Counted from the stretch's first letter, positions 10,535 through 36,991 are shown. The stretch: DNA of 64,000 bases from an uncultured bacterium (GCA_963700155.1 OY969472.1:445511-509510); one strand, 5' to 3'. The notes: generated by a model from the sequence alone, not told the origin. Numbers and translations are program-made.

Positions 10535-10573
10535 ATTTCATAATTATAGGTAAATTTTGATTCTTAGTTTTGT

Positions 10574-11611: not shown

Positions 11612-11613
11612 TA

Positions 11614-13805: not shown

Positions 13806-16800
13806 GTGCACAAAGTTAACTCAATAAACAGAAGAGAATTTTTCATTGCTATATTTAGCATTCTTTTTTGTATATTTATTTTACTCAATCAAAGAATTCA
13901 GCATGTATTCGCAGCTTCAAATAGTACAATTTCTATCCAAGGTAAAATTGTAGATAAAAACGACGGGACTAATGTAACTTCGTCAAGTGTAGCTTGCATA
14001 AATAATGGAGGTCCGGATGCTTGCAAATTTAGAGTTAGTATTTATGATGGAAATACTGGAAGCGATACTCTACTATGGCAAGAAACTCATACAAATGTTG
14101 AAATCGGGGATACTGGAGGAATATTTAATTTGAACTTGAACTCAATTTGTGGAAGCTGGGACAATCCCACTACTCCATGCAGTGGAAGTGGAATTACTTG
14201 GGGCAGCGGGGATCTATATATTCAAATCGATGTTGATGTAGATAATGACAATAGTTATTCCGAATCCTTCCCCGCTGCCCCGGCAGATAGACCGTTATTT
14301 ACTAGTGTTCCATATTCATACTACTCTGATGTTGCTGGGACAGTTCCTGCAAACAGTTTAGATTTCACTGAGTTTAAAGATACAATGACATTAGATAATT
14401 CAACTATTATAGATTTTGGATCATCTACAAATAGTTTTACTCTTCTAAATAATGGTTCTGGTGATGGTATTGTAAATTTAACTTCTACTGGTGGATTTAA
14501 TATCCAAAGTGGTGGTAACACATACGCACAATTCACGGCAGCCGGAAATGTAGGAATTGGATTAGCTACAGCACCGGATGGGAAATTACAAATTAAAACA
14601 GATAGTACTGCTGCATCGGGTAGTACTTACGGACTGCATGTTAATGGTTCACAATCTACTGCAAATTCAGGTTCTTATTATGGAGTATATTCAAATCCAA
14701 GTTATACTGCTGCCTCCGGTAATACGTTAAGTTTTCTTTATGGAGGCAATTTTAGCCCCTATAACGGATCAACAGGAACAATTTCATATTTATATGGTCT
14801 ATATAGTGGACCTAATAATACTGTTGGGGGTTCGATTGGTTCAATCTATGGGTTAAGTGCAGCACCAACAAATTCTTCAAGTGGTTCTATAACATCAATG
14901 TATGGAATTTCAGCTGTAACTATAAAATCAGGCACTGGTACAATTGGTACTGCATATGCATTGTATGGACAAGTGAGGAATAATAACGCAACTGGGGCAA
15001 TTACAACTGGATATGGTCTTTATATCGACACACCAGCCACAACTGGAGCTATTACAAATAACTGGGGTATTTATCAAGCTGATACTGCAGGCTTAAACTA
15101 TTTTGGAAATAAAAGCAGTTTTGGAACAACTACTGCGACAGCATATTTAAATTTAGCTCCAAGCACCACATCACAAGCTAGTTTAAGATTAGTAAGCAGT
15201 GCAGGCACAGATCCTTCTTCTGCTAATAGTGGAGATTTATGGTGGAATGGAACTAACCTTTACTTTAATGATGGTGGCTCAAATACTGATCTCTTAGCTG
15301 GAGGTGGTTGTGGAGGTAGCTGCTTTGAACAGGGAGGAAATGCTTTTGGTGCAACTGGTGTTCTTGGTACAACAGATTCTAATGATGTCTCAGTTATAAC
15401 TAATGGAACTAATAAATTATATATACAAGATTCTACCGGTAATGTTGGTGTTGGTAATAATAATCCTACTTCACTTTTCTCGGTTGGCTCTTCATCTGAA
15501 TTTCAAATAGATTCTTCTGGTAATATCGTTAACTTAGGTGGTGCTGCTCATTCTATTGCTAACTCATCTGGTGCTCTTAATATTGATTCTGCTTCAACAG
15601 GAGCTATTAATATTGGGACATCTTCTAATGCTAAAACTATTACTGTTGGTAACACTACTGGTGCTACTGGTTTAGTCTTTAACTCTGGTACAGCTGGTAT
15701 TTCATCTACTTCTACTGCGACATCTGGTAATGCATTTTCATATACTGCTAATTCTCTTAGTAGTGGTAATGGTCTTTATGTTACATCAACCGCTGCTTCC
15801 TTCTCTGGTTCTTTAGCTAAAATTTTCTGGAATCCTACTTCTGGTAGTACTGCTACTGGTGATTTATTTACTATTGACACTGCTGGTGGAAGTGTTTTAG
15901 GTAACTTATTCAATGTTAAAGATGGTGGTAGTTCTTTATTCTCTGTTTCTCAGACTCAGGTCACTTCCACCATTCCTGTTCAATTTAATGCTCCTGGTGA
16001 TGTTGCAATTGCGTATGATATTGTTTTAACAAATCCTGTAGCATCATTTGTAAAGTCAAACTCTAATTTAAATTTACAGGCTGGAGCATCTTTTGCATCA
16101 TCAAATTTAACTTTAAGTACATTTAATAGCGGGATGATCGTTCTTGATTCTGCTACTGTTTATGCTAATGGGAATGTAGGCATCGGAGTCTCTCCTTCTT
16201 ACAAGCTTGATGTTCTGGCAAGTGGGACAGGAGTAATCGCTAGATTTAATAGCGCTAATACTACTGGTTGTACTCTAGCTACTGGTGGAACTATTTCTTG
16301 TTCTTCTGATGTTAAATTAAAACAAGATATTGCTGATATTAATTATGGAATCGGCACTGTAATGCAGCTTAGACCTGTCTCATTCAACTGGAGAAATCAA
16401 GATAATCCTTATAAAAGTTTAGGGTTTATTGCACAAGATGTTAATTCAATTTTACCTAATTTAGTAACAGTTGATTCAGCTTCTGGGAACATGGAGTTAA
16501 ATTCTATCGGATTTATTCCAATATTAACTAAAGCAATCCAAGATCAGCAGGAAGAGATTACTGCAATGCAGTCAGTTTTAGGTATTTCAACAAACGGGAG
16601 TGCAGCTCATATTTTAACGCAGGAAAATATTCTAAGTTATTTAAACAATACAACAATTCCTAATTTTAAAGTTAAAAAAATCACTATAAATGAACAGCTT
16701 ATTGCTAAATCTGTTGTAGTCGTAGGTGATACTACGTTTATTGGTAAGGTTAGTGTTGGAAGCGATACTGCAGGGAAAGCAACTATAAAAGCAGGGGAAA

Positions 16801-17012
16801 GTAATGTTAAGGTAATGTTCTCATCATCATATCAAGAAGCACCTATTGTAACTGTAACCGCCGTAAATTCATCTGTAATCTATAAAGTTAAAAATATTTC
16901 AAACAATGGATTTACAATCGAATTGAGTAATCCAGAGACAAGCGATATTGAATTTAATTGGATTACAGTTGGAATAACTCAAAGTACACCAGCTTCATAC
17001 CCACTTAATTAA
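13806..17012 (+). CDS. Large secreted fibre-like protein: Gly/Thr/Ser-rich beta-repeat body + tail-fibre intramolecular chaperone (Peptidase S74-like) domain + C-terminal H-type-lectin-like domain
   Basis: 1068 aa with an N-terminal TM/signal. CSSDVKLKQDIADINYGIGTVMQLRPVSFNWRNQ...LGFIAQDVNSILPNLV matches the Ser-Lys autoproteolytic chaperone domain of phage tail spikes and endosialidases. The terminal segment VKVMFSSSYQEAPIVTVTAV...NNGFTIEL...IEFNWITVG resembles an H_lectin domain. Confidence 0.7.
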   Translation: MHKVNSINRREFFIAIFSILFCIFILLNQRIQHVFAASNSTISIQGKIVDKNDGTNVTSSSVACINNGGPDACKFRVSIYDGNTGSDTLLWQETHTNVEIGDTGGIFNLNLNSICGSWDNPTTPCSGSGITWGSGDLYIQIDVDVDNDNSYSESFPAAPADRPLFTSVPYSYYSDVAGTVPANSLDFTEFKDTMTLDNSTIIDFGSSTNSFTLLNNGSGDGIVNLTSTGGFNIQSGGNTYAQFTAAGNVGIGLATAPDGKLQIKTDSTAASGSTYGLHVNGSQSTANSGSYYGVYSNPSYTAASGNTLSFLYGGNFSPYNGSTGTISYLYGLYSGPNNTVGGSIGSIYGLSAAPTNSSSGSITSMYGISAVTIKSGTGTIGTAYALYGQVRNNNATGAITTGYGLYIDTPATTGAITNNWGIYQADTAGLNYFGNKSSFGTTTATAYLNLAPSTTSQASLRLVSSAGTDPSSANSGDLWWNGTNLYFNDGGSNTDLLAGGGCGGSCFEQGGNAFGATGVLGTTDSNDVSVITNGTNKLYIQDSTGNVGVGNNNPTSLFSVGSSSEFQIDSSGNIVNLGGAAHSIANSSGALNIDSASTGAINIGTSSNAKTITVGNTTGATGLVFNSGTAGISSTSTATSGNAFSYTANSLSSGNGLYVTSTAASFSGSLAKIFWNPTSGSTATGDLFTIDTAGGSVLGNLFNVKDGGSSLFSVSQTQVTSTIPVQFNAPGDVAIAYDIVLTNPVASFVKSNSNLNLQAGASFASSNLTLSTFNSGMIVLDSATVYANGNVGIGVSPSYKLDVLASGTGVIARFNSANTTGCTLATGGTISCSSDVKLKQDIADINYGIGTVMQLRPVSFNWRNQDNPYKSLGFIAQDVNSILPNLVTVDSASGNMELNSIGFIPILTKAIQDQQEEITAMQSVLGISTNGSAAHILTQENILSYLNNTTIPNFKVKKITINEQLIAKSVVVVGDTTFIGKVSVGSDTAGKATIKAGESNVKVMFSSSYQEAPIVTVTAVNSSVIYKVKNISNNGFTIELSNPETSDIEFNWITVGITQSTPASYPLN
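15600..16700 (+). repeat. ~1.1-kb near-identical duplicated segment, copy A (partner at 21306-22415), mosaic with a more divergent ~200-bp core
   Basis: Direct nucleotide comparison: 15600-16010 versus 21306-21715 and 16215-16695 versus 21920-22415 differ only by scattered SNPs. 16010-16215 versus 21715-21920 is clearly more divergent. Confidence 0.8.
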
Positions 17013-17380
17013 GGAGTAGAATTTGAATTACTTTGAGAGATTTGGGCTACATTTACAATCTTATTTACAGATGCTCTATAAATAATTGCCTCAGAAGTAA
17101 AAATAATTAGAGTATCACCATTAACAGCATTTTTATAAAATTCCGGGTCTTCGTTTTTTAACTGGTCAATATTACTAATAGTAGCAATTTTAGGATTAGA
17201 CTCATCGGGTAATATTATTAAGTCAGTAAGATTAGAAATAATACTTTCTTTTGTTGATTGTTGAGATTGTAAATCTACTTGATTTTTTAAGATCACATAT
17301 TGATATACCAAGAAACCCATTACAGTTAAGAAAATGAGCACTATTAGAATTAACAAAATATTTTTATTTTTTTTAACCAT
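17009..17380 (-). CDS. Small single-pass membrane protein carrying one copy of a novel ~45-aa repeat (shared with 35988-36707)
   Basis: 123 aa. The N-terminal TM is ILLILIVLIFLTVMGFLVY. The repeat is ...PKIATISNIDQLKNEDPEFYKNAVNGDTLIIFTSEAIIYRASVNKIVNV. Confidence 0.55.
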   Translation of the reverse strand: MVKKNKNILLILIVLIFLTVMGFLVYQYVILKNQVDLQSQQSTKESIISNLTDLIILPDESNPKIATISNIDQLKNEDPEFYKNAVNGDTLIIFTSEAIIYRASVNKIVNVAQISQSNSNSTP

Positions 17381-17498: not shown

Positions 17499-20400
17499 TT
17501 GAAATTGAACAAAATTACTAAAATAATAATTTTAGCTTTCTTAGTCTTTGGGTTTATTTTACCTACTTTAAGTTTAGATGCATCAACAAGAAGTACAATT
17601 GAATTTAAATCTGGAATAGTTGACCAAGATGGTACTCCACTATCTGATGGAATTTATAATTTTGGATTTATAATCTTTAATCAATCTACTGGGGGTTCAT
17701 CACTTTGGAGCGAAAATTGGTCAAGTGTCGAAGTAAGGAGAGGTCAAGTTAGTGTAGATTTAGGATCTATAAATCCTTTTCCTGATTCCTTGTTTGCTAA
17801 TGATTCTTTGTACCTTCAAGTTTGTTTAAATGCTAATGGAATAGCAGGAGATGGTTCTGGATCTTGCGGTGGAAATTATGAAGAAAGTTTTAGTCCAAGA
17901 AAAGCTATAACAGCAGTAGCATGGTCATATAGGGCAAACACTCTCTCATCTGTAGATATAGCTAAAGATGAAACTGCATATAATCTTAATATATACGGAG
18001 ACTCGGGAACGCTATTAAATTTAAATTTCAATAGTACTAGCCAGTTTAATATAGGTTCAGCAGGTAGTTTATCACTAGGAACTGGAAATAGTTCTTTCTT
18101 ATTCTCGCCAACAAGCAATTCTATTAATTTGACAGGAACAACAGATATATATTTCGGTGCTAACGCTTCCCTCAGGAACAACTCATCTTCAGAAAATTCA
18201 GGTGCAAATATTATTGGGGTTTATACTGAAGGACTTCAAAATATAACAGGAAATACTTTGCAAAAAGTAATAGAAAATATCGATGGATTATTTAAATGGA
18301 AGCCAGGTACATCATCTTCAATTTCTTATAGTGGTGGAAATGTAGGAATTGGAACAACCACACCTAATTATTTATTAGATGTAAATGGGACAGGAAGTTT
18401 TTCAGGTGGATTAAAAATAGGAAACACAACAACAGGGGTGGCTGGAATGTTAAGATGGAACGGATCAGATTTTGAAGGATATAATGGAAGCTCTTGGAAT
18501 TCTTTAACTTCAGGTGGCGGAGGGGGCAGTCCATCTGGAAGCGATGGATATATACAATTTTATAGCTCAGGATCATTTGGGAGCAGTGCTAATCTTAATT
18601 GGAATATAGCAAATAGCTATTTAACAATTGGCTCATCAGCCGGGACTTCGGGAATACTAAATTTAGGACCAGCCACTACAACAAGATCCTCATTAAATTT
18701 AGCAAACTCTTCAGGGGTAAATGTTTCTAGTCCAACATCAGGAGATTTATGGTGGAATGGAACAAATCTTTATTTTTATAATGGATCATCAAATGTTGAC
18801 TTATTGGCTAGTGGCGGAGGCTCATGTGCTACATGCTTTCATCAAAGTGGAGATGCATTTGGAACAACAGCTACTTTAGGAACTACAGATTCAAATACAT
18901 TATCAATTATTACAAATAATACACCAGCTATTACTATATTAAGTGATGGGAAAGTTGGTATCGGGGTATCTCCTACTGTAAAACTTGATGTGGCCGGAGC
19001 TGTAACTTTAACAGGTGTTTTAACAACTGGAAGCTCAGCAATCTCATTAACATTAGCAACAGGTTACATTGATGCTAATGCAATTACATTATCTGGTTCA
19101 ACATTAGATGTCACTTCGAATGGACTTAAAGTTGCTGATGGTGGTATTACTGGTACTCAACTAAATTCAAGCGTAGCTGGGACTGGTCTAACAGGAGGAG
19201 GAGGCTCTGCTTTATCTGTTCTTTATGGATCATCTGCTGGTAATGCTGTTCAAGGGAATACTTCAATAACTGTTAGTGCTGGATCGGGATTAGGAGGTGG
19301 TGGAAGTATTACTTTAGGAAGTGGCGGAACTGTCACTTTGAATAACGCTGGTGTTACTGCTTTCAATACTTTTACTGGTGGTATAACTTTGAATGGAACG
19401 ACAAATCAAGTTAATATTGATAATAATTCAGGGACTATTACACTTTCTACACCTCAGGATATTGACAGTTCCGCCACACCAACGTTTGCCGGAGTCTTGC
19501 TTTCAGGCTTATCTGCAAGTTCTGCAGTCTATACAGATGGATTAAAAAATTTAACAACAACTGCTCCAACTACAGGAGCTATAGGATATTTAAGTAGAAC
19601 CGGGACAACATTATCTCCAGCAACTGCAGGAGATAACTTTACCACATCAGGTGATATTTCGACTTCAGGTTCAGGTACTATTACATCAACAGGGTTATTA
19701 ACAGGAAATTCTGGGTTAACAGTTTTAGGGACAACTTCGATTAATGCTTCTGGAATTGGGACTACAACAATCGGAAGTGGATCGGGAACAGTTACAATTG
19801 CAGATGGAACTGGTAATTTAAATTTAGGTAATAGCTCAGGAACATTCTCTTTAACATCAAATGGTGGATTAAATGTTACAACTGGGGGAAATATTACTGC
19901 TGGTACATATAATGGGAATACTTTAACGTCTACAGCATTAACTTTCTCGGGTTCTAATCCAAATATTTCCCCATCTACAGGAAATACCGGAATAACAATT
20001 AACGCAAATGGGAGCGGAACGATCGGAATTGGAGCGACTTCAACTGGAGATATATTATTGGGTGGAGGTAGCGGTTCTACAGGTTGTACAATCGAAAATT
20101 CTACAGGAAATCTAACTTGTTCCGGAACAATAAGTGGATCGAATACTACAAATTATTGGAGCAGAGTGGTTACAACATTATCTCCAGCTACTGCAGGAGA
20201 TGATATAACTACAGCTGGGAATATTTACACCTCAAGTTCAGGCACTATTACATCAGATGGTTTAATAACTGGAAATTCTGGGTTAACAATTTTGGGGACA
20301 ACTTCGATCAATGCATCAGGCACAGGAACAACTACAATTGGAAGCGGGTCTGGAATTGTAACTATTGCTAATGGAACTGGTAACTTAGCTTTAGGAAATT

Positions 20401-22766
20401 CCACTGGAACATTCTCTTTAACATCTAATGGTGGTCTAAATGTCACTAGCGGTGGGGTGCTAATGGGTGCAACTGGAATAAATACTACCGATGCAACAAG
20501 TTTAGCAATAGGTAATGCTACTGGAACTTTTTCTTTAACCTCAAATGGAGGATTAAATGTAAGTACAGGGGGAGCTCTTACAGGTGTAGTAAGTATAAAT
20601 TCAACAGATACCTCAGATTTGGATATTGGCAATTCATCAGGAACACTCACATTAACATCTAATGGTGGCTTAAATGTAACAAGTGGAGGTGCCTTAACAG
20701 GTGTTGCTAGTATTAATACAATTACTACAACTTCCTCTGCATTAACTTTTGCTGGGGCCGGAACCATTTCGGCTTCTTCAACAGGTTTGGATATTCAATC
20801 TGATGGGAGCATTGACGTTAATATCGCCGGAGGTTCCGGCTCCACTGGCTGTACAATTGAGAACTCTACAGGTAATTTAATATGTTCCGGTACAGTAAGC
20901 GGGACCAATATTACAAGTAACTATTGGAGTAGATCAGTAACAACATTATCACCTGTAAATGTTGGAGATAACATAACTACATCAGGTTCTGGGACAATAA
21001 CATCAGCTGGGTTACTAACTGGCTCAAATGGAATTACTGTAACAGGAGGTGATGCAAATATTAATGCTTCAGGTACTTCTAACACATCAATAGGTAATGG
21101 ATCTGGAACATTTGATATTACTTCTAACGGCGGATTAAATGTAAATACGACTGGAGACTTAACTGGAGTAGCTAGCATTGATACAATAACAACAACTGCA
21201 ACTAGTTTAGGGTTTGCGGGAACTGGAACAATATCTTCCGGTGCTGGAACTGACTTAAATATAACATCAGGAACTACTGGAATATTAAACTTAGATTCAG
21301 GCTCAACAGGAGCTATTAATATTGGGACATCTTCTAATGCTAAAACTATTACTGTTGGTAACTCTACTGGTGCTACCGGTTTAGTCTTTAACTCTGGTAC
21401 AGCTGGTATTTCATCTACTTCTACTGCGACATCTGGTAATGCATTTTCATATACTGCTAATTCTCTTAGTAGTGGTAATGGTCTTTATGTTACATCAACT
21501 GCTGCTTCCTTCTCTGGTTCTTTAGCTAAAATTTTCTGGAATCCTACTTCTGGTAGTACTGCTACTGGTGATTTATTTACTATTGACACTGCTGGTGGAA
21601 GTGTTTTAGGTAACTTATTCAATGTTAAAGATGGTGGTAGTTCTTTATTCTCTGTTTCTCAGACTCAGGTCACTTCCACCATTCCTGTTCAATTTAATGC
21701 TCCTGGTGATGCCACATTTGCTTATGACTTAGTTTTGACTAATACAACTGCATCATTTGTGAAGTCTGACTCTAATTTAAATTTACAAGCTGGTGAAGTA
21801 TTCAACTCATCAAATTTAACTTTGAGCACTTTTAACAGTGGGATGATTGTTCTTGATACAGCAACGGTCTACACTACAGGGAATGTAGGAATTGGTACAA
21901 CACCTTCATATAAACTTGATGTTCTAGCAAGTGGGACAGGAGTAATCGCTAGATTTAATAGCGCTAATACTACTGGTTGTACTCTAGCTACTGGTGGAAC
22001 TATTTCTTGTTCTTCTGATGTTAAATTAAAACAAGATATAGCTGATATTAATTATGGAATCGATACGGTAATGCAACTTAGACCTGTCTCATTCAACTGG
22101 AGAAATCAAGATAATCCTTATAAAAGTTTAGGGTTTATTGCACAAGATGTTAATTCAATTTTACCTAATTTAGTTACAGTTGATTCAGCTTCTGGAAACA
22201 TGGAGTTAAATTCTATTGGATTTATTCCAATATTAACTAAAGCAATCCAAGATCAGCAGGAAGAAATTACTGCAATGCAGTCTGTTTTAGGCATTTCAAC
22301 AAATGGAAGTGCTGCTCATATTTTAACGCAGGAAAATATTCTAAGTTATTTAAACAATACAATAATTCCAAGTTTTAAAGTTAAAAAAATCACTATAAAT
22401 GAACAGCTTATTGCACAATCAGTAATTGTGATTGGAGATACTCAGTTTTATGGGCAGGCTGATTTTAACAATAATGTAAATGTAAAGGATAAAATCAGCC
22501 TTGGGAAAAATGGAGCTGGGAAAGTAACAATAAAATCTGGAGCTACAAAAGTTTCAGTTAAATTTAACTCTGCATATAACCAAACTCCTATTGTTAGCGT
22601 TTCCCCAAATAATATATTACCGAGTGGAACAAATTATGCAGTTACAAATATTAGTAAATCGGGATTTGATATTGAAATAAGTTATTCTACAAATTCAGAT
22701 ATTGAGTTTAGCTGGATAGCAGTTGGAACAACAATAGATTTACCTGTTTCATATTCAAGCAACTAA
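17499..22766 (+). CDS. Giant secreted fibre-like protein (1755 aa), paralogue of 13806-17012: internal Gly/Thr repeats + S74-like chaperone domain + H-type-lectin-like C-terminus
   Basis: It has an N-terminal signal/TM. It shares the blocks SGDLWWNGTNLYF...C..CF..G.AFG and SSDVKLKQDIADINYGIDTVMQLRPVSFNWRNQ... with the 13806 protein. It contains long in-frame internal repeats. Confidence 0.75.
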   Translation: MKLNKITKIIILAFLVFGFILPTLSLDASTRSTIEFKSGIVDQDGTPLSDGIYNFGFIIFNQSTGGSSLWSENWSSVEVRRGQVSVDLGSINPFPDSLFANDSLYLQVCLNANGIAGDGSGSCGGNYEESFSPRKAITAVAWSYRANTLSSVDIAKDETAYNLNIYGDSGTLLNLNFNSTSQFNIGSAGSLSLGTGNSSFLFSPTSNSINLTGTTDIYFGANASLRNNSSSENSGANIIGVYTEGLQNITGNTLQKVIENIDGLFKWKPGTSSSISYSGGNVGIGTTTPNYLLDVNGTGSFSGGLKIGNTTTGVAGMLRWNGSDFEGYNGSSWNSLTSGGGGGSPSGSDGYIQFYSSGSFGSSANLNWNIANSYLTIGSSAGTSGILNLGPATTTRSSLNLANSSGVNVSSPTSGDLWWNGTNLYFYNGSSNVDLLASGGGSCATCFHQSGDAFGTTATLGTTDSNTLSIITNNTPAITILSDGKVGIGVSPTVKLDVAGAVTLTGVLTTGSSAISLTLATGYIDANAITLSGSTLDVTSNGLKVADGGITGTQLNSSVAGTGLTGGGGSALSVLYGSSAGNAVQGNTSITVSAGSGLGGGGSITLGSGGTVTLNNAGVTAFNTFTGGITLNGTTNQVNIDNNSGTITLSTPQDIDSSATPTFAGVLLSGLSASSAVYTDGLKNLTTTAPTTGAIGYLSRTGTTLSPATAGDNFTTSGDISTSGSGTITSTGLLTGNSGLTVLGTTSINASGIGTTTIGSGSGTVTIADGTGNLNLGNSSGTFSLTSNGGLNVTTGGNITAGTYNGNTLTSTALTFSGSNPNISPSTGNTGITINANGSGTIGIGATSTGDILLGGGSGSTGCTIENSTGNLTCSGTISGSNTTNYWSRVVTTLSPATAGDDITTAGNIYTSSSGTITSDGLITGNSGLTILGTTSINASGTGTTTIGSGSGIVTIANGTGNLALGNSTGTFSLTSNGGLNVTSGGVLMGATGINTTDATSLAIGNATGTFSLTSNGGLNVSTGGALTGVVSINSTDTSDLDIGNSSGTLTLTSNGGLNVTSGGALTGVASINTITTTSSALTFAGAGTISASSTGLDIQSDGSIDVNIAGGSGSTGCTIENSTGNLICSGTVSGTNITSNYWSRSVTTLSPVNVGDNITTSGSGTITSAGLLTGSNGITVTGGDANINASGTSNTSIGNGSGTFDITSNGGLNVNTTGDLTGVASIDTITTTATSLGFAGTGTISSGAGTDLNITSGTTGILNLDSGSTGAINIGTSSNAKTITVGNSTGATGLVFNSGTAGISSTSTATSGNAFSYTANSLSSGNGLYVTSTAASFSGSLAKIFWNPTSGSTATGDLFTIDTAGGSVLGNLFNVKDGGSSLFSVSQTQVTSTIPVQFNAPGDATFAYDLVLTNTTASFVKSDSNLNLQAGEVFNSSNLTLSTFNSGMIVLDTATVYTTGNVGIGTTPSYKLDVLASGTGVIARFNSANTTGCTLATGGTISCSSDVKLKQDIADINYGIDTVMQLRPVSFNWRNQDNPYKSLGFIAQDVNSILPNLVTVDSASGNMELNSIGFIPILTKAIQDQQEEITAMQSVLGISTNGSAAHILTQENILSYLNNTIIPSFKVKKITINEQLIAQSVIVIGDTQFYGQADFNNNVNVKDKISLGKNGAGKVTIKSGATKVSVKFNSAYNQTPIVSVSPNNILPSGTNYAVTNISKSGFDIEISYSTNSDIEFSWIAVGTTIDLPVSYSSN
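19550..20990 (+). repeat. Intragenic tandem-like coding repeats within the 1755-aa fibre gene
   Basis: Repeated protein units: LSPATAGD..T.G.I.TS.SGTITS.GL(I/L)TGNSGLT(V/I)LGTTSINASG.GTTTIGSGSG.VTIA.GTGNL.LGNS.GTFSLTSNGGLNV, and GGSGSTGCTIENSTGNL.CSGT.SG.N.T.NYWSR.VTTLSP. The underlying nucleotide copies are about 85-90% identical (for example 19600-19870 versus 20190-20460, and 20060-20215 versus 20825-20985). Confidence 0.7.
21306..22415 (+). repeat. ~1.1-kb near-identical duplicated segment, copy B (partner at 15600-16700)
   Basis: Same comparison as above. It covers the S74-like chaperone domain region of both fibre genes. Confidence 0.8.
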
Positions 22767-22779
22767 GGATAAGTCACTT

Positions 22780-23907
22780 ATGCTAAAAGATAAATTTAAT
22801 AAGATTAAAAAAGTAATAGAAAAAAATAAACTCCTAAAAAGTTTTAAAGGAAGGCTTATTTACATATTAAAGCAATTAGATCAGAGATTTAAAATAATAA
22901 AAAGTTGGGGATTAAAGAATAGAAAACATCAATTTTTGGGTACGATATTCATTTTAATGATTCTTTTACCTATAGCTTCCATTTTAATGTTTTTATTTAC
23001 TAAACCTGTTCAAGCAGACTGGTTTAATGCAAATTGGAGTTTTAGAAAAAGAATAGATATAGTTAATAGTTCTGGTACAACACTTACAAATTTTCAGGTT
23101 AAATTTTCAATTGATACCGCTTCACTTTATTCAACTGGGAAATTAAGATCAGACTGTGGAGATATTAGAATTACTGACAATCAAGGTAAAATTCTTCCGT
23201 ATTGGATCGAGACATCAAATGTAGCCTGTAATGCAAATAGCAGTCAAACCATATGGACTAAAATTGACAGTATTCCTTCAAGTGGTGCTAATAATGTTAA
23301 ATATATCTATCTTTACTATGGGAATCCGCTAGCAACCTCAACACAAAATGGGAATGACACTTTTGATTTCTTTGATGATTTTTCATCATCAACCTTAAAT
23401 TCTAATAAATGGACTGCAACTGGGGCATATTCAATATCATCTGGGGCTTTAACAATAACAACTGGATCTGTATATTCGAATAATACTATAGTTTCATCAA
23501 ATCAAAATGAAATGTTCGAAATGAGAGCTAAATGGGCGACTACACAAACTTCATATTCAGGTATAATGATTTCAAATGCAAATAGCATTCAAGGTGGTAA
23601 TGCTGGCTCCAATAAACTTTCTATGTTGATGACAAATGCTGGAGTAGGTATTGATCAACAGGCATTTGCAGCTGATGGGACATCAGCAACGTATAATATT
23701 GTAAACAATATAACTCAGTTTACACCAACAGCAAACACATATTATTTTTCTGGATTTTCTCATACAACTTCAAACCTAAGATATTATCAAAATCGTTCAC
23801 AAACAAATTCATATTCAGATACTGCAAATTTTTCACCATATTTATTTTTGGGATATTTTGCAGGTTCAACTGCAGGCACTCGCAGATACAACAGATACAA
23901 CTATTGA
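22780..23907 (+). CDS. N-terminal fragment of a giant surface protein: signal-anchor + DUF2341 + start of a concanavalin-like module (reading frame lost near 23875-23890)
   Basis: It is paralogous to the N-terminus of 29356-35889 (NRKHQFLGTIFILMILLPIASILMF...VQADWFNANWSFRKRIDI versus NRRHQFLSILLILLFFLPIASVIT...VQAAWFNENWQYRQRLDI). The DUF2341 hallmark ...YIYLYYGNP is present. This ORF ends 50 nt after the next ORF starts, in another frame. Confidence 0.7.
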   Translation: MLKDKFNKIKKVIEKNKLLKSFKGRLIYILKQLDQRFKIIKSWGLKNRKHQFLGTIFILMILLPIASILMFLFTKPVQADWFNANWSFRKRIDIVNSSGTTLTNFQVKFSIDTASLYSTGKLRSDCGDIRITDNQGKILPYWIETSNVACNANSSQTIWTKIDSIPSSGANNVKYIYLYYGNPLATSTQNGNDTFDFFDDFSSSTLNSNKWTATGAYSISSGALTITTGSVYSNNTIVSSNQNEMFEMRAKWATTQTSYSGIMISNANSIQGGNAGSNKLSMLMTNAGVGIDQQAFAADGTSATYNIVNNITQFTPTANTYYFSGFSHTTSNLRYYQNRSQTNSYSDTANFSPYLFLGYFAGSTAGTRRYNRYNY

Positions 23908-26900
23908 TTTTGTTATAGCAAGAAAATTTTCAACTACAGATCCTAATCTTACTCTAGGCTCAGAAGAAATCACTCCTAATCCAACTGCTGATTGGAGTTT
24001 TGATGAGGGGCAAGGTCAAGTTGCATATGATAAGACATCAAACTCTAACAATGGACAACTCGGGTCTACATCAGGTTCTGATGCAAATGACCCTACTTGG
24101 GAAACCGAAGATCAGTGTGTTATAGGAAAATGTCTGCTTTTTAATGGAAGTAGTAATTATGTTTCTCTTACCCCTAACTTACAAACTATCAGTCAGATTA
24201 CTATTTCTGCTTGGTTTAATACGAATACAGCAACATTTCCAAATTCATTCAGAATGCTTTTTTCATCATCATCCGGATCATCTTATCTTGCTCTTGCTTA
24301 TACTGGGGCAAGTCCTTTTGTTTCATTTGATATAGGAGGTACTCAACACGCACTAAATTCCAATTTTACCCCTTTGTTAAATCACTGGTATTACGTTACC
24401 GCTACTTATGACGGTAACTTTATTAGAATTTATGTCGACGGTATTCTTAGGAATACTAGTGCTCAATATACAGGTACATTAAATGGGTTCACTTCAGGAG
24501 CTATGTATATAGGCAAATACATTGCTCCGGGATATGAATTCAGTGGAAAACTAGATGAAGTAAAAATTTATCCATATGCAAGATCAGCTGATCAAGTCAA
24601 AGTTGATTATAATGGTGGTGCAGAAGTTCTTGGAGATCAAACTCAAGCCTATCTTTCAAACGGATTAGTTGGTTATTGGAAGATGGATGAAAACACCTGG
24701 GGTACTCCAGATTGCTCTACTAATATTGTTCTAGATTCTTCAGGAAATAGTAATAACGGCAAGGCTTGTCCCAATGCTAGCGGACCTACTGGTGCTGCAG
24801 CTGGTAAGTTTGGTAATGGTGGTTTGTTTGATGGCTCTAATGACTATGTTGATACTGGTACTTCATATGAATCAACCTTCCAGGATAGCTATACATTTGC
24901 TTTCTGGACAAAACCTACTGATGGTCACCCTGCGGCCACTCAAATCCTTGCTGGTACTAATCCAGCAACAAACAATATTGTTAAAATATTCCTAAATACT
25001 GATGGAACGCTTGCTTATCAGTATCAAAATAATTCAATTGGGACAGTCGCTCAAACTGCTTCAGCTGTATTTTCTGATGGTCCTCAAAGTTCTTGGACTC
25101 ATATTGCTATTGTTGCAGATGCTAACATTAATGGTATTGGAGGTCTTAAGATTTATGTTAATGGACAATCTGCTACTTTAGATGGTGCTGCAACTGGCGA
25201 TACTTCTGGTATTACGTTCAGTACCTATACTAATTCTAATAATTTTTACTTTGGAGCCCGCAATAGTAATGGATCACCACAGAATTACTATGCGGGCTCA
25301 TTTGATGATTTAAGAATCTATAAAAGAGCTCTTTCTTCTTCTGATGTTCTATCTTTATATAACTGGGCCCCTGGACCTGTACTTAACTATAATTTAGACG
25401 AAAATACCGGCACCACTGCCCATGATACTAGTGGGTTCAATAATAATGGGACATTAACAAATGGTGCTACTTGGAATGCAGGTAAATATGGAAGTGGAGT
25501 ATCTTTTGACGGAGTCAATGATTATATTGATACACCTGATAGCAGTTCTCTTTCTCTTAACTCACAAATAACAATAGATGGATGGATAAAATTGGTTAGT
25601 GGCATGAGTACCAGCAGCACTCAAAAACAAACAATTGTTGATTCTGTAGATTACAACCTTTATCTTGATAATGCTGATGGGAAAGCTCATTTCGATCTAA
25701 ATGATTCAACTGCAGATAGTTTACTAGCTACTACAGACTGGAATTTAGGAGCAATATATGGATTTGATGGTATTGTTGGTACTATGGCTTATTTTAATGG
25801 AGCTTTATATGTTGCAGGATCGTTTAATGCAATTTGTGGTAATGCAACTTGTGATAGCGGAAATATCACTGCTCATCATATTGCAAAATGGAATGGATCT
25901 TCTTGGACTGCTGTCGGATATGGCGTGAGTTCTACAGTCTATTCCATTCAAGTGTACAATGGAGAACTATATTTAGGAGGGGCTTTTTCATCTATTTGTG
26001 GTAATGCAACTTGTGACAGTGGAAATATTACTACGAATCGAATTGCAAAATGGAATGGATCTTCATTTAGTACCGTGAGTTATGGTTTCAATAGTTCAGT
26101 CCGTACATTTGTAACATATAATGGAGAATTATATCTAGGAGGAAATTTTACAGTTATCTGTGGCAATACTGCATGTAACAGTGGGAATGTTACCACTAAT
26201 TCTATAACAAAATGGAATGGATCCTCGTTTAGTACTGTAGGATATGGAATGAATAATCCAGTCTATACGGTTAGTATATATGACGGGAAATTAATACTAG
26301 GCGGAGCTTTTAGCAGTATCTGTGGCAACACAGCATGCAACAGTGGAAATGTTACCACTAATTATGTAGCAAGGTGGGATGGATCCACTTTTAGTACATT
26401 TGGGTTTGGAATGAATGCAAATCCTAATTCTTTTGAAATATACAATGGGACATTATATACCGGAGGGAATTTTACAGCTATTTGTGGTAATACTGCATGC
26501 AACAGTGGGAATACAAATACTAATTTTATAGCAAAATGGAATGGATCTTCTTGGACTGCAGTATCCTATGGGCTATATAATCCTTTCGGAAGGGTTGATA
26601 CGTTGGGGGTCTACAATGGTAAATTATATGTGTCTGGAACTTTTACAGGGATATGTAATGATGCGGCTTGTAGTAGTGTTACTTCAGCGAATGATTTAGC
26701 TGCATGGGATGGATCTTCTTGGAGTCTTGTAGGAAATGGAATAGAGATAGGGAGGAGTATCAGTTACTTTATAAATTATAATGGGAATTTATATTTTTCG
26801 ACTAATGCAAGTTATCTTTGTGGAAATAGTACTTGTGATAGTGGGAATATTCCTATTTATAATTTTGGACAAATAGGGACAACAAATGTAAAAACAGTTA

Positions 26901-29332
26901 CATCTACTACTTCTTCATGGAATGCAAATACCTGGTATCACATTGCAGCTACATACAATAAATCAACTATAAGATTATATGTCAATGGTACTTTACAAGG
27001 TAGCGCAACTACAAGCATAACCATAGAAAACACTAATAATGAATTTTATATTGGGAAAATGCATGGCTCGAGCTATGGTCAGGATTGGGGGGGTGATATT
27101 GGTGAAAGCTTATTTAAAGGAACTTTGGATAATCTTTATATTTATAACTATGCTAGAACTTCATCTCAAATTATTGAAGACATGAATGGAGGACATCCTA
27201 TTGGTGGGTCTCCTTTAGAATCTCCGGCAATACACTGGAAGATAGATGATATGCAAGGTGGGACTGCAAACAATTCTGGTAATTTAGGCTCTAGTTTTAA
27301 TGGGACTATCAGTGGTGGAGGTTGGCGAAATCATGATTCTTGTAAAGTTAATGGGTGCTACCAATTTACCGGTGCTAATGATTATATAGAAAAGACAGGA
27401 TCTACATTCTTTGATGGATTAACTACTATGACTGCCTCTTTATGGATTAAACCTCAAACATTTCTATTCCCTGATGATGCTATCTTAGCAAAAAGAGATG
27501 CATCAGATAATGGGTTTTTTATCTATACTGATCATTCAAATGGTTCTGCTCTAAGAGTTGGGATTTCTAATGGAGCAACAGATGTCAGTAATTATTGTAC
27601 AACTCCTACTGGAATACTAGCATTATCAACTTGGGCACATATTGCTGTAGTTTATGATGGTTCTCAAGATACTAATAACAGAATCAAAGTTTACAAGAAT
27701 GGGAATCTTGTAACTTGTACAGCCACTGGAACTATCCCTACTGCATTGCGAACTAGTACAGCACCTCTAAGACTAGGGAGAAGTGCTTTTGCTACACAGT
27801 ATGGCTATTATGATGAAGTAAAAATTTACAATGTAGCCTTAACTTCAGATCAGGTTAAGATTGATATGAATAATGGTGCATCTGAAAACTTTGGAAGTTC
27901 TGGAAGTAGTGAAGCTGCTCTGTTAGATGATGGAGCTGGAAATCCACCGGTGGGCGAATGGAAAATGGATGAAAATAGTGGCACAGTAGTGGCAGACACT
28001 AGTGGGAATGGCCATGCTGGATCAGTCAGCGGTACAACGACTTCAATCTGGCAGCAAGGCAAATACGGTTCGTCACTCAAGTTTAATGGGTCTAATAATT
28101 ATATAAGCTTTGGAAACTATCTGGGCCTAACTAATACACTTACAATCAGCATGTGGGTAAAACCTAGCTCATCTCAGGCTAATGCATATGCCACTATCCT
28201 GAGAAAATCAACCACAGCCAACACTGGGTATGGGATAGAGCAAAACAACACAACTACTAATCAATACTATTTCTGGTATGGGAATGGGTCTTCTTTAGAA
28301 TGCGCAACTACTTATTTTTCTCTAACCGCAGGAACCTGGCAGAATTTAGAAATTACAAAATCTGGAACAGCTATTATTATTTACATTAATGGTACCGCAG
28401 TAAACAGATGTACAGCAACGAGCGGTACTGTTGCTACTAACCCAGACTCCTTCACCTTAGGAAGCTACAGTGGAGGAAGTGCTAGGTGGTGGGCTGGGCA
28501 GCAAGACGATATTAAAATGTATGATTATGCACGTACTCAATCTCAAGTGGAGTATGACTACAATCGCGGTGCTCCTTTTGCTTGGTGGAAGCTAAATGAA
28601 TGCCAGGGGTCTACTGCTCATGACTCCACTGGTAATAATTACAACGGAACTATTACAATCACTGCAACCGGGGGTAATACTAATGGGATTGGAGATTGTA
28701 CAACGTCAACCAGTGCTTGGGGCTCAGGTGCCAGTGGAAAATATGGATCAAGTTTATTTTTTGATGGAAATGGTGACTATATTAATACAGGGAATTCTTT
28801 TGAAAAGACTTTTCAATCAAGTTATTCATTATCTATGTGGGTAAAACCAACAGATGGACACCCTAGTTCTCCTGGGTCAACTTTTATTGGTACAAGTAAA
28901 TCTTCAGGATCTTTAGTGAACTTAATTCTAGAATCTAATGGGAAACTTCGTTTACAATATGGTAATGAAACAAATTCTGTGAATGCAGAAACGGCAAATG
29001 CAATATTTAATGATGGACAAGTAACACAATGGACTCAAATAGTAGTGACAGCTAATGCAAATACAAATGGTCCAGATGGAGTTAAAATCTATTTAAACGG
29101 GGTAAAGCAGCAGCTAGGAACAAGTATTTATAGTGGAGATACAACAGGGCTTGATTTTTCTTTATATAGTAATACAAATAATGTCTATATTGGAGTTAGA
29201 GATTCACTAGGTTTTCCAACTACAAATTGGGTTAGTGGACCAATGGATGATATAAGAATCTATAATTATGCTTTATCATCAAATCAAATTCAACAACTTT
29301 ATAACAATGGAGCAGCATATTTCGGCTTATAG
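23858..29332 (+). CDS. Main body of the same giant surface protein: multiple Laminin_G_3/concanavalin-A-like lectin modules + Cys-containing delta-60-like propeller repeats (continuation after a +1 frameshift)
   Basis: Recurrent module ends match the LamG_3 terminal motif: L(D/S)DLRIYKRALSSSDV, LDEVKIYPYARSADQV, YDEVKIYNVALTSDQV, and so on. The ORF begins with a TTG at 23858 in frame +1 relative to the upstream fragment. The sequence ...TIDFVIARKF continues the jelly-roll started upstream. Confidence 0.75.
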   Translation: MQVQLQALADTTDTTIDFVIARKFSTTDPNLTLGSEEITPNPTADWSFDEGQGQVAYDKTSNSNNGQLGSTSGSDANDPTWETEDQCVIGKCLLFNGSSNYVSLTPNLQTISQITISAWFNTNTATFPNSFRMLFSSSSGSSYLALAYTGASPFVSFDIGGTQHALNSNFTPLLNHWYYVTATYDGNFIRIYVDGILRNTSAQYTGTLNGFTSGAMYIGKYIAPGYEFSGKLDEVKIYPYARSADQVKVDYNGGAEVLGDQTQAYLSNGLVGYWKMDENTWGTPDCSTNIVLDSSGNSNNGKACPNASGPTGAAAGKFGNGGLFDGSNDYVDTGTSYESTFQDSYTFAFWTKPTDGHPAATQILAGTNPATNNIVKIFLNTDGTLAYQYQNNSIGTVAQTASAVFSDGPQSSWTHIAIVADANINGIGGLKIYVNGQSATLDGAATGDTSGITFSTYTNSNNFYFGARNSNGSPQNYYAGSFDDLRIYKRALSSSDVLSLYNWAPGPVLNYNLDENTGTTAHDTSGFNNNGTLTNGATWNAGKYGSGVSFDGVNDYIDTPDSSSLSLNSQITIDGWIKLVSGMSTSSTQKQTIVDSVDYNLYLDNADGKAHFDLNDSTADSLLATTDWNLGAIYGFDGIVGTMAYFNGALYVAGSFNAICGNATCDSGNITAHHIAKWNGSSWTAVGYGVSSTVYSIQVYNGELYLGGAFSSICGNATCDSGNITTNRIAKWNGSSFSTVSYGFNSSVRTFVTYNGELYLGGNFTVICGNTACNSGNVTTNSITKWNGSSFSTVGYGMNNPVYTVSIYDGKLILGGAFSSICGNTACNSGNVTTNYVARWDGSTFSTFGFGMNANPNSFEIYNGTLYTGGNFTAICGNTACNSGNTNTNFIAKWNGSSWTAVSYGLYNPFGRVDTLGVYNGKLYVSGTFTGICNDAACSSVTSANDLAAWDGSSWSLVGNGIEIGRSISYFINYNGNLYFSTNASYLCGNSTCDSGNIPIYNFGQIGTTNVKTVTSTTSSWNANTWYHIAATYNKSTIRLYVNGTLQGSATTSITIENTNNEFYIGKMHGSSYGQDWGGDIGESLFKGTLDNLYIYNYARTSSQIIEDMNGGHPIGGSPLESPAIHWKIDDMQGGTANNSGNLGSSFNGTISGGGWRNHDSCKVNGCYQFTGANDYIEKTGSTFFDGLTTMTASLWIKPQTFLFPDDAILAKRDASDNGFFIYTDHSNGSALRVGISNGATDVSNYCTTPTGILALSTWAHIAVVYDGSQDTNNRIKVYKNGNLVTCTATGTIPTALRTSTAPLRLGRSAFATQYGYYDEVKIYNVALTSDQVKIDMNNGASENFGSSGSSEAALLDDGAGNPPVGEWKMDENSGTVVADTSGNGHAGSVSGTTTSIWQQGKYGSSLKFNGSNNYISFGNYLGLTNTLTISMWVKPSSSQANAYATILRKSTTANTGYGIEQNNTTTNQYYFWYGNGSSLECATTYFSLTAGTWQNLEITKSGTAIIIYINGTAVNRCTATSGTVATNPDSFTLGSYSGGSARWWAGQQDDIKMYDYARTQSQVEYDYNRGAPFAWWKLNECQGSTAHDSTGNNYNGTITITATGGNTNGIGDCTTSTSAWGSGASGKYGSSLFFDGNGDYINTGNSFEKTFQSSYSLSMWVKPTDGHPSSPGSTFIGTSKSSGSLVNLILESNGKLRLQYGNETNSVNAETANAIFNDGQVTQWTQIVVTANANTNGPDGVKIYLNGVKQQLGTSIYSGDTTGLDFSLYSNTNNVYIGVRDSLGFPTTNWVSGPMDDIRIYNYALSSNQIQQLYNNGAAYFGL
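25780..26880 (+). repeat. ~8 tandem ~50-aa coding repeats (delta-60 / beta-propeller-like, each with a CGN(A/T)(T/A)C(D/N)SGN insert)
   Basis: (A/S)ICGNATCDSGNIT...IAKWNGSSWTAVGYG...V(Y/F)...YNGELYLGG(A/N)F(S/T) recurs about 8 times. The (A/T)KWNGS(S/T)(W/F)(S/T) units resemble the delta-60 repeat (IAKWDGSSWSALG). Confidence 0.65.
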
Positions 29333-29355
29333 TAATAATATATTGAATATTAGAA

Positions 29356-32300
29356 ATGAGTAAAAATTTGAAAAAAATAACAAAGAACATAATTAAAATA
29401 AGAAAAAAGATTTCTAATTCGTCTTTTTACATAAAAAGATTCTCTCCTCTGAAGAATAAATTTTATAATTGCATTTTTAATATAAAAACCTGGGCTTTTA
29501 AAAACAGACGTCATCAATTTTTAAGTATTTTATTAATTTTACTATTCTTTTTACCCATTGCCTCAGTTATAACTACACTTTTATCAACACCTGTACAAGC
29601 AGCATGGTTTAATGAAAATTGGCAATACAGACAAAGACTTGATATTACAATAACATCATCTAGTAGTGATATCTCGAATTTACAAATGTATTTTACAGTT
29701 AATACATCTGTACTTATATCAACTGAAAAACTTCAATCTTCGTGTCAAGATTTACGTTTTACAAGTGTTTCGGGACGGCTTCTGCAATATTATATAGATT
29801 CTGGATGTAACACAACAGCTACAAAAATTTGGGTAATGGCGGACTTAATTCCTAAAAATACAACTACTTATCAAATATATATGTACTATGGAAATCCAGC
29901 GGCATCAGCTGGATCAGAATCAGGCTATTTTGATAATGTAGTTGGATTAGCAGCTTATTGGACTTTTAATGATGGAAGTGGTATCAGTGTTGCTGATTCT
30001 TCAAAAAATGCATTTACAGCAACAATAAATACTGGAACCTTTACAACCGGTAAGTTCGGGACAGCTTTAAGTAAAAACGGTTCAGGGCAAGGGGCAACTG
30101 CTACATATGGAGCAGGAAGTGATTTAGACTTCCCGGCAAATACACAAGTTACTGTAGAATTTTGGTTGAACTCACCTACTTCTCACACCAGCCGTCTTAT
30201 TAATGCTATTGCATCTGGAGGATTAAATGTCCCAAATATTGGTACAGCTTTGTACTTTGGGGTATTTTCCGGTAATACTGTAACTTTTAATAGTGCCATC
30301 TCCTATGATGGAGCGTGGCACCATTATGCCTTAAGTTATAATGGTACAAGTGTAAGTTACTATAAAGACGGTTCTTTTGTATCTAGTCAAAACCTTGCAG
30401 CTAATTGGACAACAGGCTCAAAGACTTTTTACCTTGGTGGAGATGCTTCATATCCTTTAAATGGAGCACTTGATGATGTTAAAGTTTATCGAACAAGTAG
30501 AAATTCAACACAAATACTTGCTGATTTCAATAATACCAGTTGTGGAGGATTGGTATGCACAATTGCAACATCACCTGTTGGCACAGTTAATCCTAGTTCA
30601 GTTTCTTTTAACTCTGAAGAAATTGGCCCTGGTCCAGTTGCAAATTGGGGTCTCGATGAAGGGTATGGAGATAGTTCTACAGGAAATGGTCCTGTTGCAT
30701 ATTGGAACCTAGATGAAAATACTAACATAACAGCTACTGATTTGAGTGGGAATGGTAATACTGGAACATTAACTGGCAGTCCAACATGGGTAAGTGGAAT
30801 ATATAATTCTAGTGTAAATTTTAATGGTAGTAGTAATTATATAACAATAAATAATTCCACCTCTTTAAATATTAGAGCTCCAATAACTTTATCTGCCTGG
30901 ATTTACCCTACATCAACTGCTTCATTTCAAAATGTAATATCTAAAAGAAATACCACTTCTCCTTATTCACTGCGAATTAATAACGGAACAAATCTTGAAT
31001 ACTATTTTCATGACGGGACAGCTTACCGTGAATATATTAAAACTGGAGTTATAAAACTAAATACATGGCAGTTTGTTGCTGCAACAAATGATGGTACTAA
31101 TATTAATTTATATGTAAATGGGGTTAATGTCTTATCAACTACTACACCATATACCCCTGCTACAACTACAGATACTATTCAAATAAGTGGTTGGCACGGT
31201 ATAAATGAATTGTTTTCAGGGTCAATTGATGATGTGAAAATTTATAATTACGCCAGAAGTGCCAATCAGGTTATTGAAGACATGAATAGAGATGTCCATT
31301 CTAATGGTACAGCAGGAAAAAGTGCTTATGGATTTAACTACGGTGCTACTTGGCAGACTGAAGATCAATGTGTTGTAAGAAAATGTTTAAGCTTTAATGG
31401 TACTAGTAACTATGTATCTCTTTATCCTAACTTACAAACAACTAGTAAAATTACAATTTCATCATGGATTAATACAAGAACTTTATCATTACCATCTAAC
31501 TTTAGAATGATTTTTTCTTCTTCAGATGGAGCATCATACCTTGCACTTGTAACAAATGGTTTAGCAACTCCTTTTGTCTCATTTGATATTGGGGGAACTC
31601 AACGAGCTCTAAATTCTAATTTTATTCCTAAAATAAATCATTGGTACTATGTTACCGCTACATATGATGGTAATTATATAAGAATTTATGTAGATGGAAT
31701 CCTTCGTAATACTAGTGCACAATATGTAGGTTCCTTAGCAGGATTTAGCTCTGGTTCAATGTACATAGGCAAATATTTAGCAGCTGGATATGAATTTAGC
31801 GGTAAACTAGATGAATTAAAAATTTATCCTTATGCGAGAACAGATGATCAAATAAAAAGTGATTACAATTCAGCTGCAGAGTTGCTTGGAAAACAAAATC
31901 AAACTTATTTAAGTAATGATTTAGTAGGGTATTGGAAGATGGATGAATCATCTTGGAATAATAATTGCTCTACTACCTCTGTAATCGATTCTTCTGGTAA
32001 TGGATTTAATGGTAAATCATGTCCTAATGGTAGTGGACCTACTGGAGGTGCAGTAGGTAAGTTTGGCAATGCTGGATATTTTGATGGAGTTAATGACTAT
32101 GTTGAAGTAGCTGATAATGATTTATTGGATCCTGCTAATGCAATTACAGTCGCTATGTGGTTTAGACCAGACCAGACACTTGTTGATTTTCAGGCAGTTC
32201 TTGGGAAAGGAGGAGGGGCTTCCTTCGAGAAAGGGTATGAATTTGCAACAAGCAACGATCAATTTGGTTTCTGGGTCAATGGTAATACCCATATTGCAAC

Positions 32301-35987: not shown

Positions 35988-36707
35988 ATGAATCCACAAA
36001 GTCCATTACAGCAGAATCAAAATTCTCAACATAATTTTTCTCAGCAACAAGTGATGCCTCCAAATCAGGCTAAAAAAGGAAGGAAGTCTTTCTTAAAAAG
36101 AATCTGGAATACCAAAAGTGTTTTAATTATTGTTGCTATTTTACAGATCATCATCATTGTTTTAATTCTGAATCCAGTTGCATTAGTTCAGCAATATCAA
36201 AATCAGCAGATTATAAATGAAGTTGCAGCAAAAACAGCAGTCAACACTGCCGAGAGTCCAGTAATTGCCACAATTACTAATGCAGATCAACTAAGAAGTG
36301 CGAACGCTGCTCAAGCACAGGTCTATAAAGATGCACAGAACGGAGATTATGTTCTAGGATATTCAGATAAAATGATAATTTATAGAAGAGGTACTGGAGA
36401 AGTAATTTATAATGGTGATAATCCTAATGATTTAGTAACACATACTCAAGAGAAATTAGTAAGTGATATTGTAGATAAAGCTAAAAAACAGAATCTAATC
36501 TCATCAGATTCTACTGAAACACCTCAAATATCAATAATTACTGATGTAAAAAGTTTACAAACTGCAAACCCTGATTTTTATAGCATAGCTAGGAATAATG
36601 ACATTGTTGCTTTATTTCCACAAGAACAATTAATTGTTTTGTATAATCAAGAAACAAGCACAATAGTAAATTCTGGTAAATATTCAACCAATATTTCAAA
36701 TCTTTAA
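35988..36707 (+). CDS. Single-pass membrane protein with Q/N-rich cytoplasmic N-terminus and two copies of the novel ~45-aa repeat seen in 17009-17380
   Basis: The TM is VLIIVAILQIIIIVLIL. Repeat 1 is PVIATITNADQLRSANAAQAQVYKDAQNGDYVLGYSDKMIIYRRGTGEVIYN. Repeat 2 is PQISIITDVKSLQTANPDFYSIARNNDIVALFPQEQLIVLYNQETSTIVN. Confidence 0.55.
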   Translation: MNPQSPLQQNQNSQHNFSQQQVMPPNQAKKGRKSFLKRIWNTKSVLIIVAILQIIIIVLILNPVALVQQYQNQQIINEVAAKTAVNTAESPVIATITNADQLRSANAAQAQVYKDAQNGDYVLGYSDKMIIYRRGTGEVIYNGDNPNDLVTHTQEKLVSDIVDKAKKQNLISSDSTETPQISIITDVKSLQTANPDFYSIARNNDIVALFPQEQLIVLYNQETSTIVNSGKYSTNISNL

Positions 36708-36712
36708 TAATT

Positions 36713-36755
36713 AAAAGGGAAAAATAGCTCAAAATTGAGCTATTTTTCCCTTTAT
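36713..36755 (+). terminator. Stem-loop terminator after the surface island (AAAGGGAAAAATAGCTC-aaaatt-GAGCTATTTTTCCCTTT)
   Basis: A 17-bp perfect inverted repeat sits immediately downstream of the stop at 36707. There is a T-run within the 3' arm, but no long T-tract after the stem. Confidence 0.5.
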
Positions 36756-36991
36756 AAGCCATTTTTGTCAAAAACATTCTTTTTTAGTAAAAAATCTGTT
36801 TCCAACTATGGACATTCCTTATTAAATATGCTATAAATCTAGCACGTCTTTTTTCAGTAGAATTATTTTGAACAAATTCACTATTAATCTCTTTAAAATC
36901 CAAAAAATATAAAATTTATAGGGTGTGAACACTAAGGTAAGTTTGCGCCCTTTTTCTATTTATAATTTAATTAAATACATTATTAAATATA

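Follow-up and report, generated by a model that had tools for sequence, protein, structure and literature searches.

The window, the whole 64,000-nt stretch of DNA analyzed here, comes from an uncultured bacterium; the genomes closest to it are labelled Candidatus Dojkabacteria, a lineage of the CPR/Patescibacteria. It encodes several very large surface proteins and, among them, two small membrane proteins, here called A and B, whose open reading frames are present exactly where a preliminary description of the sequence had placed them. Gene A (17009..17380, minus strand) encodes a membrane protein of 123 aa, single-pass and N-in, that contains a repeated domain once; an identical protein is on record from a 1.14-Mb contig, and other relatives share 50–55% identity. 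Gene B (35988..36707, plus strand), for which 23 relatives were aligned, encodes a 239-aa N-in single-pass protein with two copies. Fibre gene 1 (13806..17012, plus strand) specifies a 1068-aa protein comprising a signal peptide, a Gly/Ser/Thr-rich shaft and a Peptidase_S74 self-chaperone module at residues 834–887 (Pfam, E=1.7e-12). It converges on gene A, the two 3′ ends overlapping by 4 nt, while on the other side a 118-nt gap separates A from the divergent fibre gene 2 (17499..22766, plus strand), whose 1755-aa product carries Peptidase_S74 at residues 1506–1559 and an H-type-lectin-like C-terminus (Pfam). The interval between the fibres and B is taken up by DUF2341/Laminin_G_3 giant genes (22780..35889, plus strand; Pfam): a 375-aa DUF2341 ORF (22780-23907), an 1824-aa Laminin_G_3 ORF (23858-29332) and a 2177-aa DUF2341/Laminin_G_3 giant (29356-35889). 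B lies 98 nt past the last of these and is followed by rpoB, rpoC, rpsL and rpsG. A scan for promoters and terminators around gene A returns sites no more numerous than expected by chance.

The last 450 residues of fibres 1 and 2, S74 module included, are 82% identical while their N-terminal and shaft regions differ, which suggests a recent duplication or a cassette-like exchange. The 375-aa ORF overlaps the start of the 1824-aa ORF by 50 nt, and its N-terminus (NRKHQFL...) resembles that of the intact 2177-aa giant (NRRHQFL...); the two ORFs are probably one giant gene split by a frameshift, which may have arisen by mutation, sequencing error or programmed shifting. The surface-protein region is bordered by an ORF6N gene of the KilA-N-like, phage-antirepressor type (8834-9370 in the window; 10408-10941 in the related locus L001), which may mark a mobile or variable island. 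Four further genes (9413-13646) precede fibre gene 1. Two of them encode secreted proteins (373 and 393 aa) with a common terminal YTDTLTF motif, and the other two (345 and 284 aa) combine a signal peptide, evident in the 345-aa protein, with a C-terminal transmembrane helix and a basic tail. A sub-threshold WxLIP_PGBD match (E=0.0015) is seen in the 284-aa protein, and in layout the cluster is reminiscent of the WxL-type surface-protein clusters known from Gram-positive bacteria. L005 has retained the cluster ahead of its fibre, and the 345-aa protein has relatives close to one-copy domain genes in L048, L053 and L054.

The repeat common to A and B, reported at first as a motif of about 45 residues present once in A and twice in B, is real. 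BLASTP with composition-based statistics returns two separate alignments of A to B, one to residues 91–140 (38% identity, E=9e-10) and one to residues 153–238 (30% identity, E=3e-8). Profiles built from the relatives of A (n=4) and of B (n=23), with the B alignment divided into halves, match each other in all pairings with 98.4–98.7% probability and E-values of 8.5e-15 to 1.8e-16 (hhalign). The copies occupy residues 38–117 of A (17030..17269, minus strand; hmmsearch with the domain profile, E=1e-27) and residues 65–147 and 150–236 of B (36180..36428 and 36435..36695, plus strand; hmmsearch E of about 1e-30 and 1e-32). The first and second copies of B match A at E=1.8e-16 and 2.4e-15, respectively, and each other at E=8.5e-15 (hhalign). 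When all six frames of the window are searched with hmmsearch, filters off, these three copies are the only ones to appear; nothing else scores below E=0.4.

The motif as first outlined is essentially right, but the unit is larger: a core of about 60 residues, or about 80 counting the preceding helix. AlphaFold2 models predict a helix followed by a β-α-α-β-β-β core (β-α-β-β-β in the copy of A), in which a strand and one or two short helices lead into a meander of three strands, with a pLDDT of 84 for B (>90 across both modules) and 82 for the single module of A. In an alignment of 35 single modules, four positions are invariant or nearly so: the Pro at the start of strand 1, Tyr in (F/V)-Y, Asp in N-G-D, and Tyr in I-I-Y-R.

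A chance or compositional similarity, or a spurious antisense ORF in the case of A, might be suspected in an AT-rich genome where A runs into the end of an oppositely oriented fibre gene. This explanation is refuted, its probability being practically nil: the sequence is not of low complexity, the composition-corrected E-values are 1e-8 to 1e-16, thousands of homologues keep the motif positions, A orthologues occur in the same arrangement in L001, L005 and L014, and the structure of the module is predicted with confidence. The A/B repeat is a genuine extracytoplasmic α/β domain, so far unnamed.

A and B each contain one strong hydrophobic segment, and basic residues lie to the N-terminal side of it. 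In A, the signal-anchor helix covers residues 8–30 (17291..17359, minus strand), is preceded by MVKKNKN and reaches a maximum Kyte-Doolittle value of 3.08 in a 19-residue window. In B, the transmembrane helix covers residues 44–67 (36117..36188, plus strand) and is preceded by AKKGRKSFLKRIWNTK; its maximum Kyte-Doolittle value is 3.04, the 15 residues before it carry a net charge of +5, and the AlphaFold2 model has a helix at 42–61. This pattern predicts an N-in topology with the domain outside. Hydropathy and charge thus bear out the shared design proposed earlier for the two proteins: a cytoplasmic N-terminus, one transmembrane helix and external repeats.

Run exhaustively with HMMER against 1.84 billion cluster representatives, the module profile yields 6,339 matches at E≤1e-3 and 2,210 at E≤1e-10. 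Among the best 150 of the 6,339, most are two-copy proteins of about 230 aa, one-copy proteins measure about 115–185 aa, and a few have three or four copies. Named organisms are mostly Patescibacteria (Dojkabacteria, Saccharibacteria, Saccharimonadales and Woesebacteria); the named exceptions outside this group are one Nitrososphaera record and L011 (CAZGFX010000002.1, 309 kb), a two-copy member whose contig bears the label of an uncultured gammaproteobacterial MAG; this reflects either misbinning or mislabelling or a rare case beyond the CPR. Where source annotations name these proteins, they call them hypothetical, save for P0206, which JGI labels preprotein translocase subunit SecF.

The motif had not been recognized as a named domain, and the libraries agree. 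A and B match no Pfam family (best E≥0.048, far under the cut-offs) and no NCBIfam model (E≥0.033, against cut-offs of 140–394 bits); PHROGs contains no match to the domain, the transmembrane region alone giving a hit at E=0.0038; and a profile search of all PDB sequences finds no match for the module. Foldseek searches find nothing meaningful in the PDB with either model (best E of 6.7e-3 at a TM-score of 0.24, and best E of 0.83) and no fold match at E≤0.001 in BFVD, the collection of predicted viral structures. Neither an A-type nor a B-type query has a relative among the 2.9 million viral contigs of IMG/VR; with viral contigs devoid of relatives and no PHROG or BFVD match, a phage origin of the domain is rejected. 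Pfam analysis of ten diverse family members finds LytR_C as the only domain outside the repeat itself, and part of the family carries a fused C-terminal LytR_C, which is typical of wall-associated envelope proteins. The domain is not a diverged copy of LytR_C: hhalign against the LytR_C parts of the fused members gives a probability of 0.1%. No literature was found on this family or on S74 fibres in the CPR.

The preliminary description had the two small genes flanking the giants and cast their products as dedicated partners of the large surface proteins, as chaperones, anchors or receptors. To assess gene context, loci were collected on the sole basis of likeness to the small proteins: the two-copy form contributed 8 from genomes, the one-copy form 50 from metagenomes, and single relatives a further 10 by look-up. 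ORFs were called, domain genes were marked with the domain profile, and fibre genes were marked with a profile grown from the last 268 residues of window fibre 1. Dereplicated at 70% identity and with the window excluded, the one-copy genes form 37 groups with an interpretable upstream neighbour. In 16 of the 37, the immediate same-strand upstream gene encodes a fibre or a protein of at least 800 aa (10 with the fibre C-terminal module and 6 other large proteins), as compared to 30 of 460 for the background of all other genes in the same, already fibre-enriched loci (Fisher p=7e-9). Single-linkage dereplication at 50% leaves 6/14 versus 43/486 (p=1e-3); as the dereplicated groups are still related by descent, these p-values overstate independence. 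The one-copy form is found with S74 fibres and giants on unrelated metagenome contigs chosen for their likeness to A alone, and for this form the notion of a partner has statistical support.

The gap between the fibre and the one-copy gene is typically about 1–80 nt, with several hundred in a few loci or an overlap in others, and in most lineages other than that of the window the one-copy gene is co-directional with the fibre and near enough to share its operon. Pfam detects Peptidase_S74 in the upstream genes of L059, L034, L020, L045 and L052 and, weakly, H_lectin in that of L047; other upstream genes encode a β-helix protein with the shared C-terminal end, a DUF11/SdrD adhesin, and giants of 2,839, 4,259 and 4,544 aa. 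In L067, the domain gene overlaps the end of the gene for an 887-aa protein with a faint match to Peptidase_G2, another self-chaperoning fibre module, and the region around that match is common to the giants of L004 and L063. The domain gene closes a same-strand run that starts with a fibre in both L066 and L068. Roughly half of the one-copy genes lack a large neighbour upstream, and no S74 or lectin module is detectable in the upstream giants of L069, L041, L040 and L042. In the lineage of the window, A is antisense to both fibre genes, making co-transcription with them impossible.

The two-copy form behaves differently. Only 2 of 15 such genes have an upstream fibre or giant (p=0.27), a position behind a LamG giant is found in the window and its close relatives L001 and L007 only, and in L002, L006, L008, L011 and L012 the gene sits among housekeeping genes. 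Hence the partner claim is not supported as a general trait of the two-copy form, and of the two forms only the one-copy gene belongs to an operational class of fibre-linked accessory genes, defined by adjacency above background.

That the small genes flank the giants is true in the window, but the underlying anatomy is simpler. L014 contains A and B as a divergent pair on a 1.3-kb contig; L005 has the same four upstream genes as the window, a fibre, antisense A and then B directly; L001 has antisense A, one fibre, one LamG giant and B. The divergent arrangement of A and a fibre seen in the window recurs in L001, and a fibre followed by antisense A recurs in L005; LamG giants between A and B number none in L005 and L014 and one in L001. 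A and B thus form a conserved divergent gene pair that brackets 0, 2 or 4 large surface-protein genes, with fibres and giants variably present. The two genes are in tandem in L010, and in L004 a single strand carries B, a 1,879-aa fibre-like giant and, 2 nt later, A. A functional tie of B to rpoB/rpoC was considered and rejected, since the adjacency is not conserved and L005 and other B-type loci have different downstream genes.

These contexts bear on a reading in which the domain serves a general function at the wall or membrane, e.g., binding wall polymers or organizing envelope proteins, has no specific fibre partner and merely resides in surface-protein islands. Such a role would fit the two-copy genes embedded among housekeeping genes, the LytR_C fusions, the Wzy, GtrA and glycosyltransferase genes adjoining P0224, the adjoining sub-threshold WxL-type surface cluster, and a domain family that is very large and conserved far better than any fibre. 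It is nevertheless unlikely: the enrichment is specific to the immediate upstream position on the same strand, with short gaps, and holds across fibre lengths and lineages, a pattern that loose co-location in islands does not predict.

What the linked fibres have in common is the C-terminal module, self-chaperoning and lectin-like, and not the N-terminus. The fibres begin with signal peptides that have Ala-x-Ala-type sites, as read by eye, so the mature proteins probably lack a membrane anchor of their own; no LPXTG or C-terminal anchor is apparent. In the model that we tentatively prefer, at somewhat less than an even chance, the one-copy protein is a fibre accessory that docks the fibre on the membrane's outward side, while the two-copy protein is a paralogue with a broader envelope role. 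The one-copy gene, placed in many lineages directly after the gene for a Sec-exported surface fibre of the phage-tail-fibre type, would supply a membrane-tethered ectodomain that captures the fibre outside the membrane. The contact would most plausibly involve the conserved C-terminal module of the fibre, the last part to leave the translocon; docking may allow three fibre chains to meet, fold and self-cleave, and/or may keep the fibre on the cell. In the lineage of the window, B forms a divergent pair with A, and fibres and giants would have accumulated between the two. Homology, topology, family size, the absence of known relatives and the gene linkage are results of the analysis; we infer the physical interaction between fibre and domain, and its direction, from the one-copy linkage, the conserved fibre C-terminus, the signal peptides, the LytR_C fusions, the adjacency of A and B, and the B-giant-A order in L004. 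Against docking stand the one-copy genes without a large neighbour (about half), the unlinked two-copy form, the antisense orientation of A in the window and the giants in which S74 or lectin modules are not seen. S74-type fibres of phages fold without a separate chaperone, and thus the need for an assembly helper is not obvious.

Instead of engaging the C-terminal module during assembly, the small protein could be a membrane socket that retains the mature fibre through its shaft or N-terminal base. This arrangement accounts equally well for the linkage statistics; the fibres have seemingly cleavable signal peptides and neither LPXTG nor a C-terminal anchor, the small protein offers a transmembrane helix and a helical stalk, and the LytR_C fusions suggest wall attachment. 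We nonetheless regard it as quite unlikely: a conserved binder needs a conserved target, the small protein is strongly conserved, and the C-terminal module alone qualifies, whereas the N-terminal domain of window fibre 1 recurs in L005 and L015 alone and was rejected as the common partner element.

By analogy to the receptor-blocking proteins of phages, whose genes adjoin those for receptor binding, the small protein might block or sense the cell's own fibres. Its position beside fibre genes and its outward-facing topology, and nothing else, point in this direction; the 2.9 million viral contigs, PHROGs and BFVD hold no relative or match, and the proteins have no cytoplasmic signalling domain, their N-terminal tails being short and variable. 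A role in self-protection or sensing is accordingly very improbable.

As a kind of system, a fibre gene accompanied by a small accessory gene is already familiar from phages, where tail-fibre assembly or chaperone genes (e.g., lambda Tfa, Mu/P2 Tfa and T4 gp38) are encoded just downstream of the fibre gene. The one-copy gene, too, stands right after a fibre gene, and its presumed target, like theirs, is the conserved C-terminal part of a fibre that otherwise varies. The similarity ends there: Tfa and gp38 are soluble, cytoplasmic and phage-encoded, while the domain protein is membrane-anchored, faces outward and is absent from viral collections; the two share neither sequence nor fold, and the fibres considered here already possess an intramolecular chaperone. 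These fibres are of the same kind as the S74 intramolecular-chaperone proteins (endosialidase and tail-spike type; Peptidase_S74, PF13884), a likeness that concerns the neighbouring genes and not the family of the domain itself, but they are chromosomal, bear signal peptides and belong to a cell and not to a virion.

Two groups of cellular proteins are also comparable in design. The envelope proteins with LytR_C (PF13399) are also N-in and single-pass with a small extracytoplasmic α/β domain, and some family members carry LytR_C fused to the new domain; A and B, however, lack LytR_C. Bitopic proteins of the FtsQ/DivIB kind are single-pass and N-in, and their POTRA-type modules, small β-α-α-β-β units that are sometimes tandem, are docking scaffolds outside the membrane. 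The domain resembles them in topology, in its small α/β modules and in its tandem copies, but has one extra strand and no Pfam POTRA match, and no POTRA, FtsQ or BamA structure is among the Foldseek PDB matches (best E=0.83, TM≤0.41). For the combination of this domain, its membrane-anchored extracytoplasmic setting, an exclusively cellular distribution dominated, where named, by the CPR, and its pairing with chromosomal signal-peptide fibres, we could find no described counterpart in databases or the literature.

CPR/Patescibacteria live attached to other microbes, and the ways in which they display very large, fast-evolving surface proteins are largely uncharted. A conserved small partner beside hypervariable fibres would provide a genomic marker for finding attachment loci; at 60–80 aa, the domain would be a tractable target for structural and binding studies and, in the few Saccharibacteria amenable to genetics, a testable point of entry; and the family adds more than 6,000 clusters at 50% identity for which the domain libraries searched have no model. 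In its widest form, which we consider doubtful, the proposal would make this unnamed family a conserved membrane receptor or assembly platform for domesticated phage-tail-fibre-like fibres displayed by many ultra-small CPR bacteria, i.e., a lineage-wide two-component system of fibre plus dock for attachment to host cells, with multi-copy paralogues such as B serving other giant adhesins.

Some domain genes lie near the genes of the transcription and translation machinery. In L066 (7962-9210), a one-copy gene is directly upstream of nusG-rplK-rplA, the usual place of secE, and in the window B is directly upstream of rpoB (35988-40416). A SecE-like role, prompted by the L066 position and the JGI SecF label, was rejected: the topology is opposite to that of SecE, and two family members, including the L066 protein, have no Sec-family Pfam match even at E≤1. 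In view of this lack of Sec-family similarity, the recurrence near the nusG/rpl/rpoB cluster is probably a coincidence. On the downstream side, FtsH, the 23S-rRNA-intervening-sequence protein and a P-type ATPase were likewise rejected as partners, as their presence reflects housekeeping synteny within sub-lineages. Within a single sub-lineage, the order of fibre, domain gene, 23S-rRNA-intervening-sequence protein and FtsH recurs partly or fully in L048, L051, L054, L036, L049 and L052; FtsH is a membrane protease, making a functional tie conceivable, and the arrangement looks like inherited synteny.
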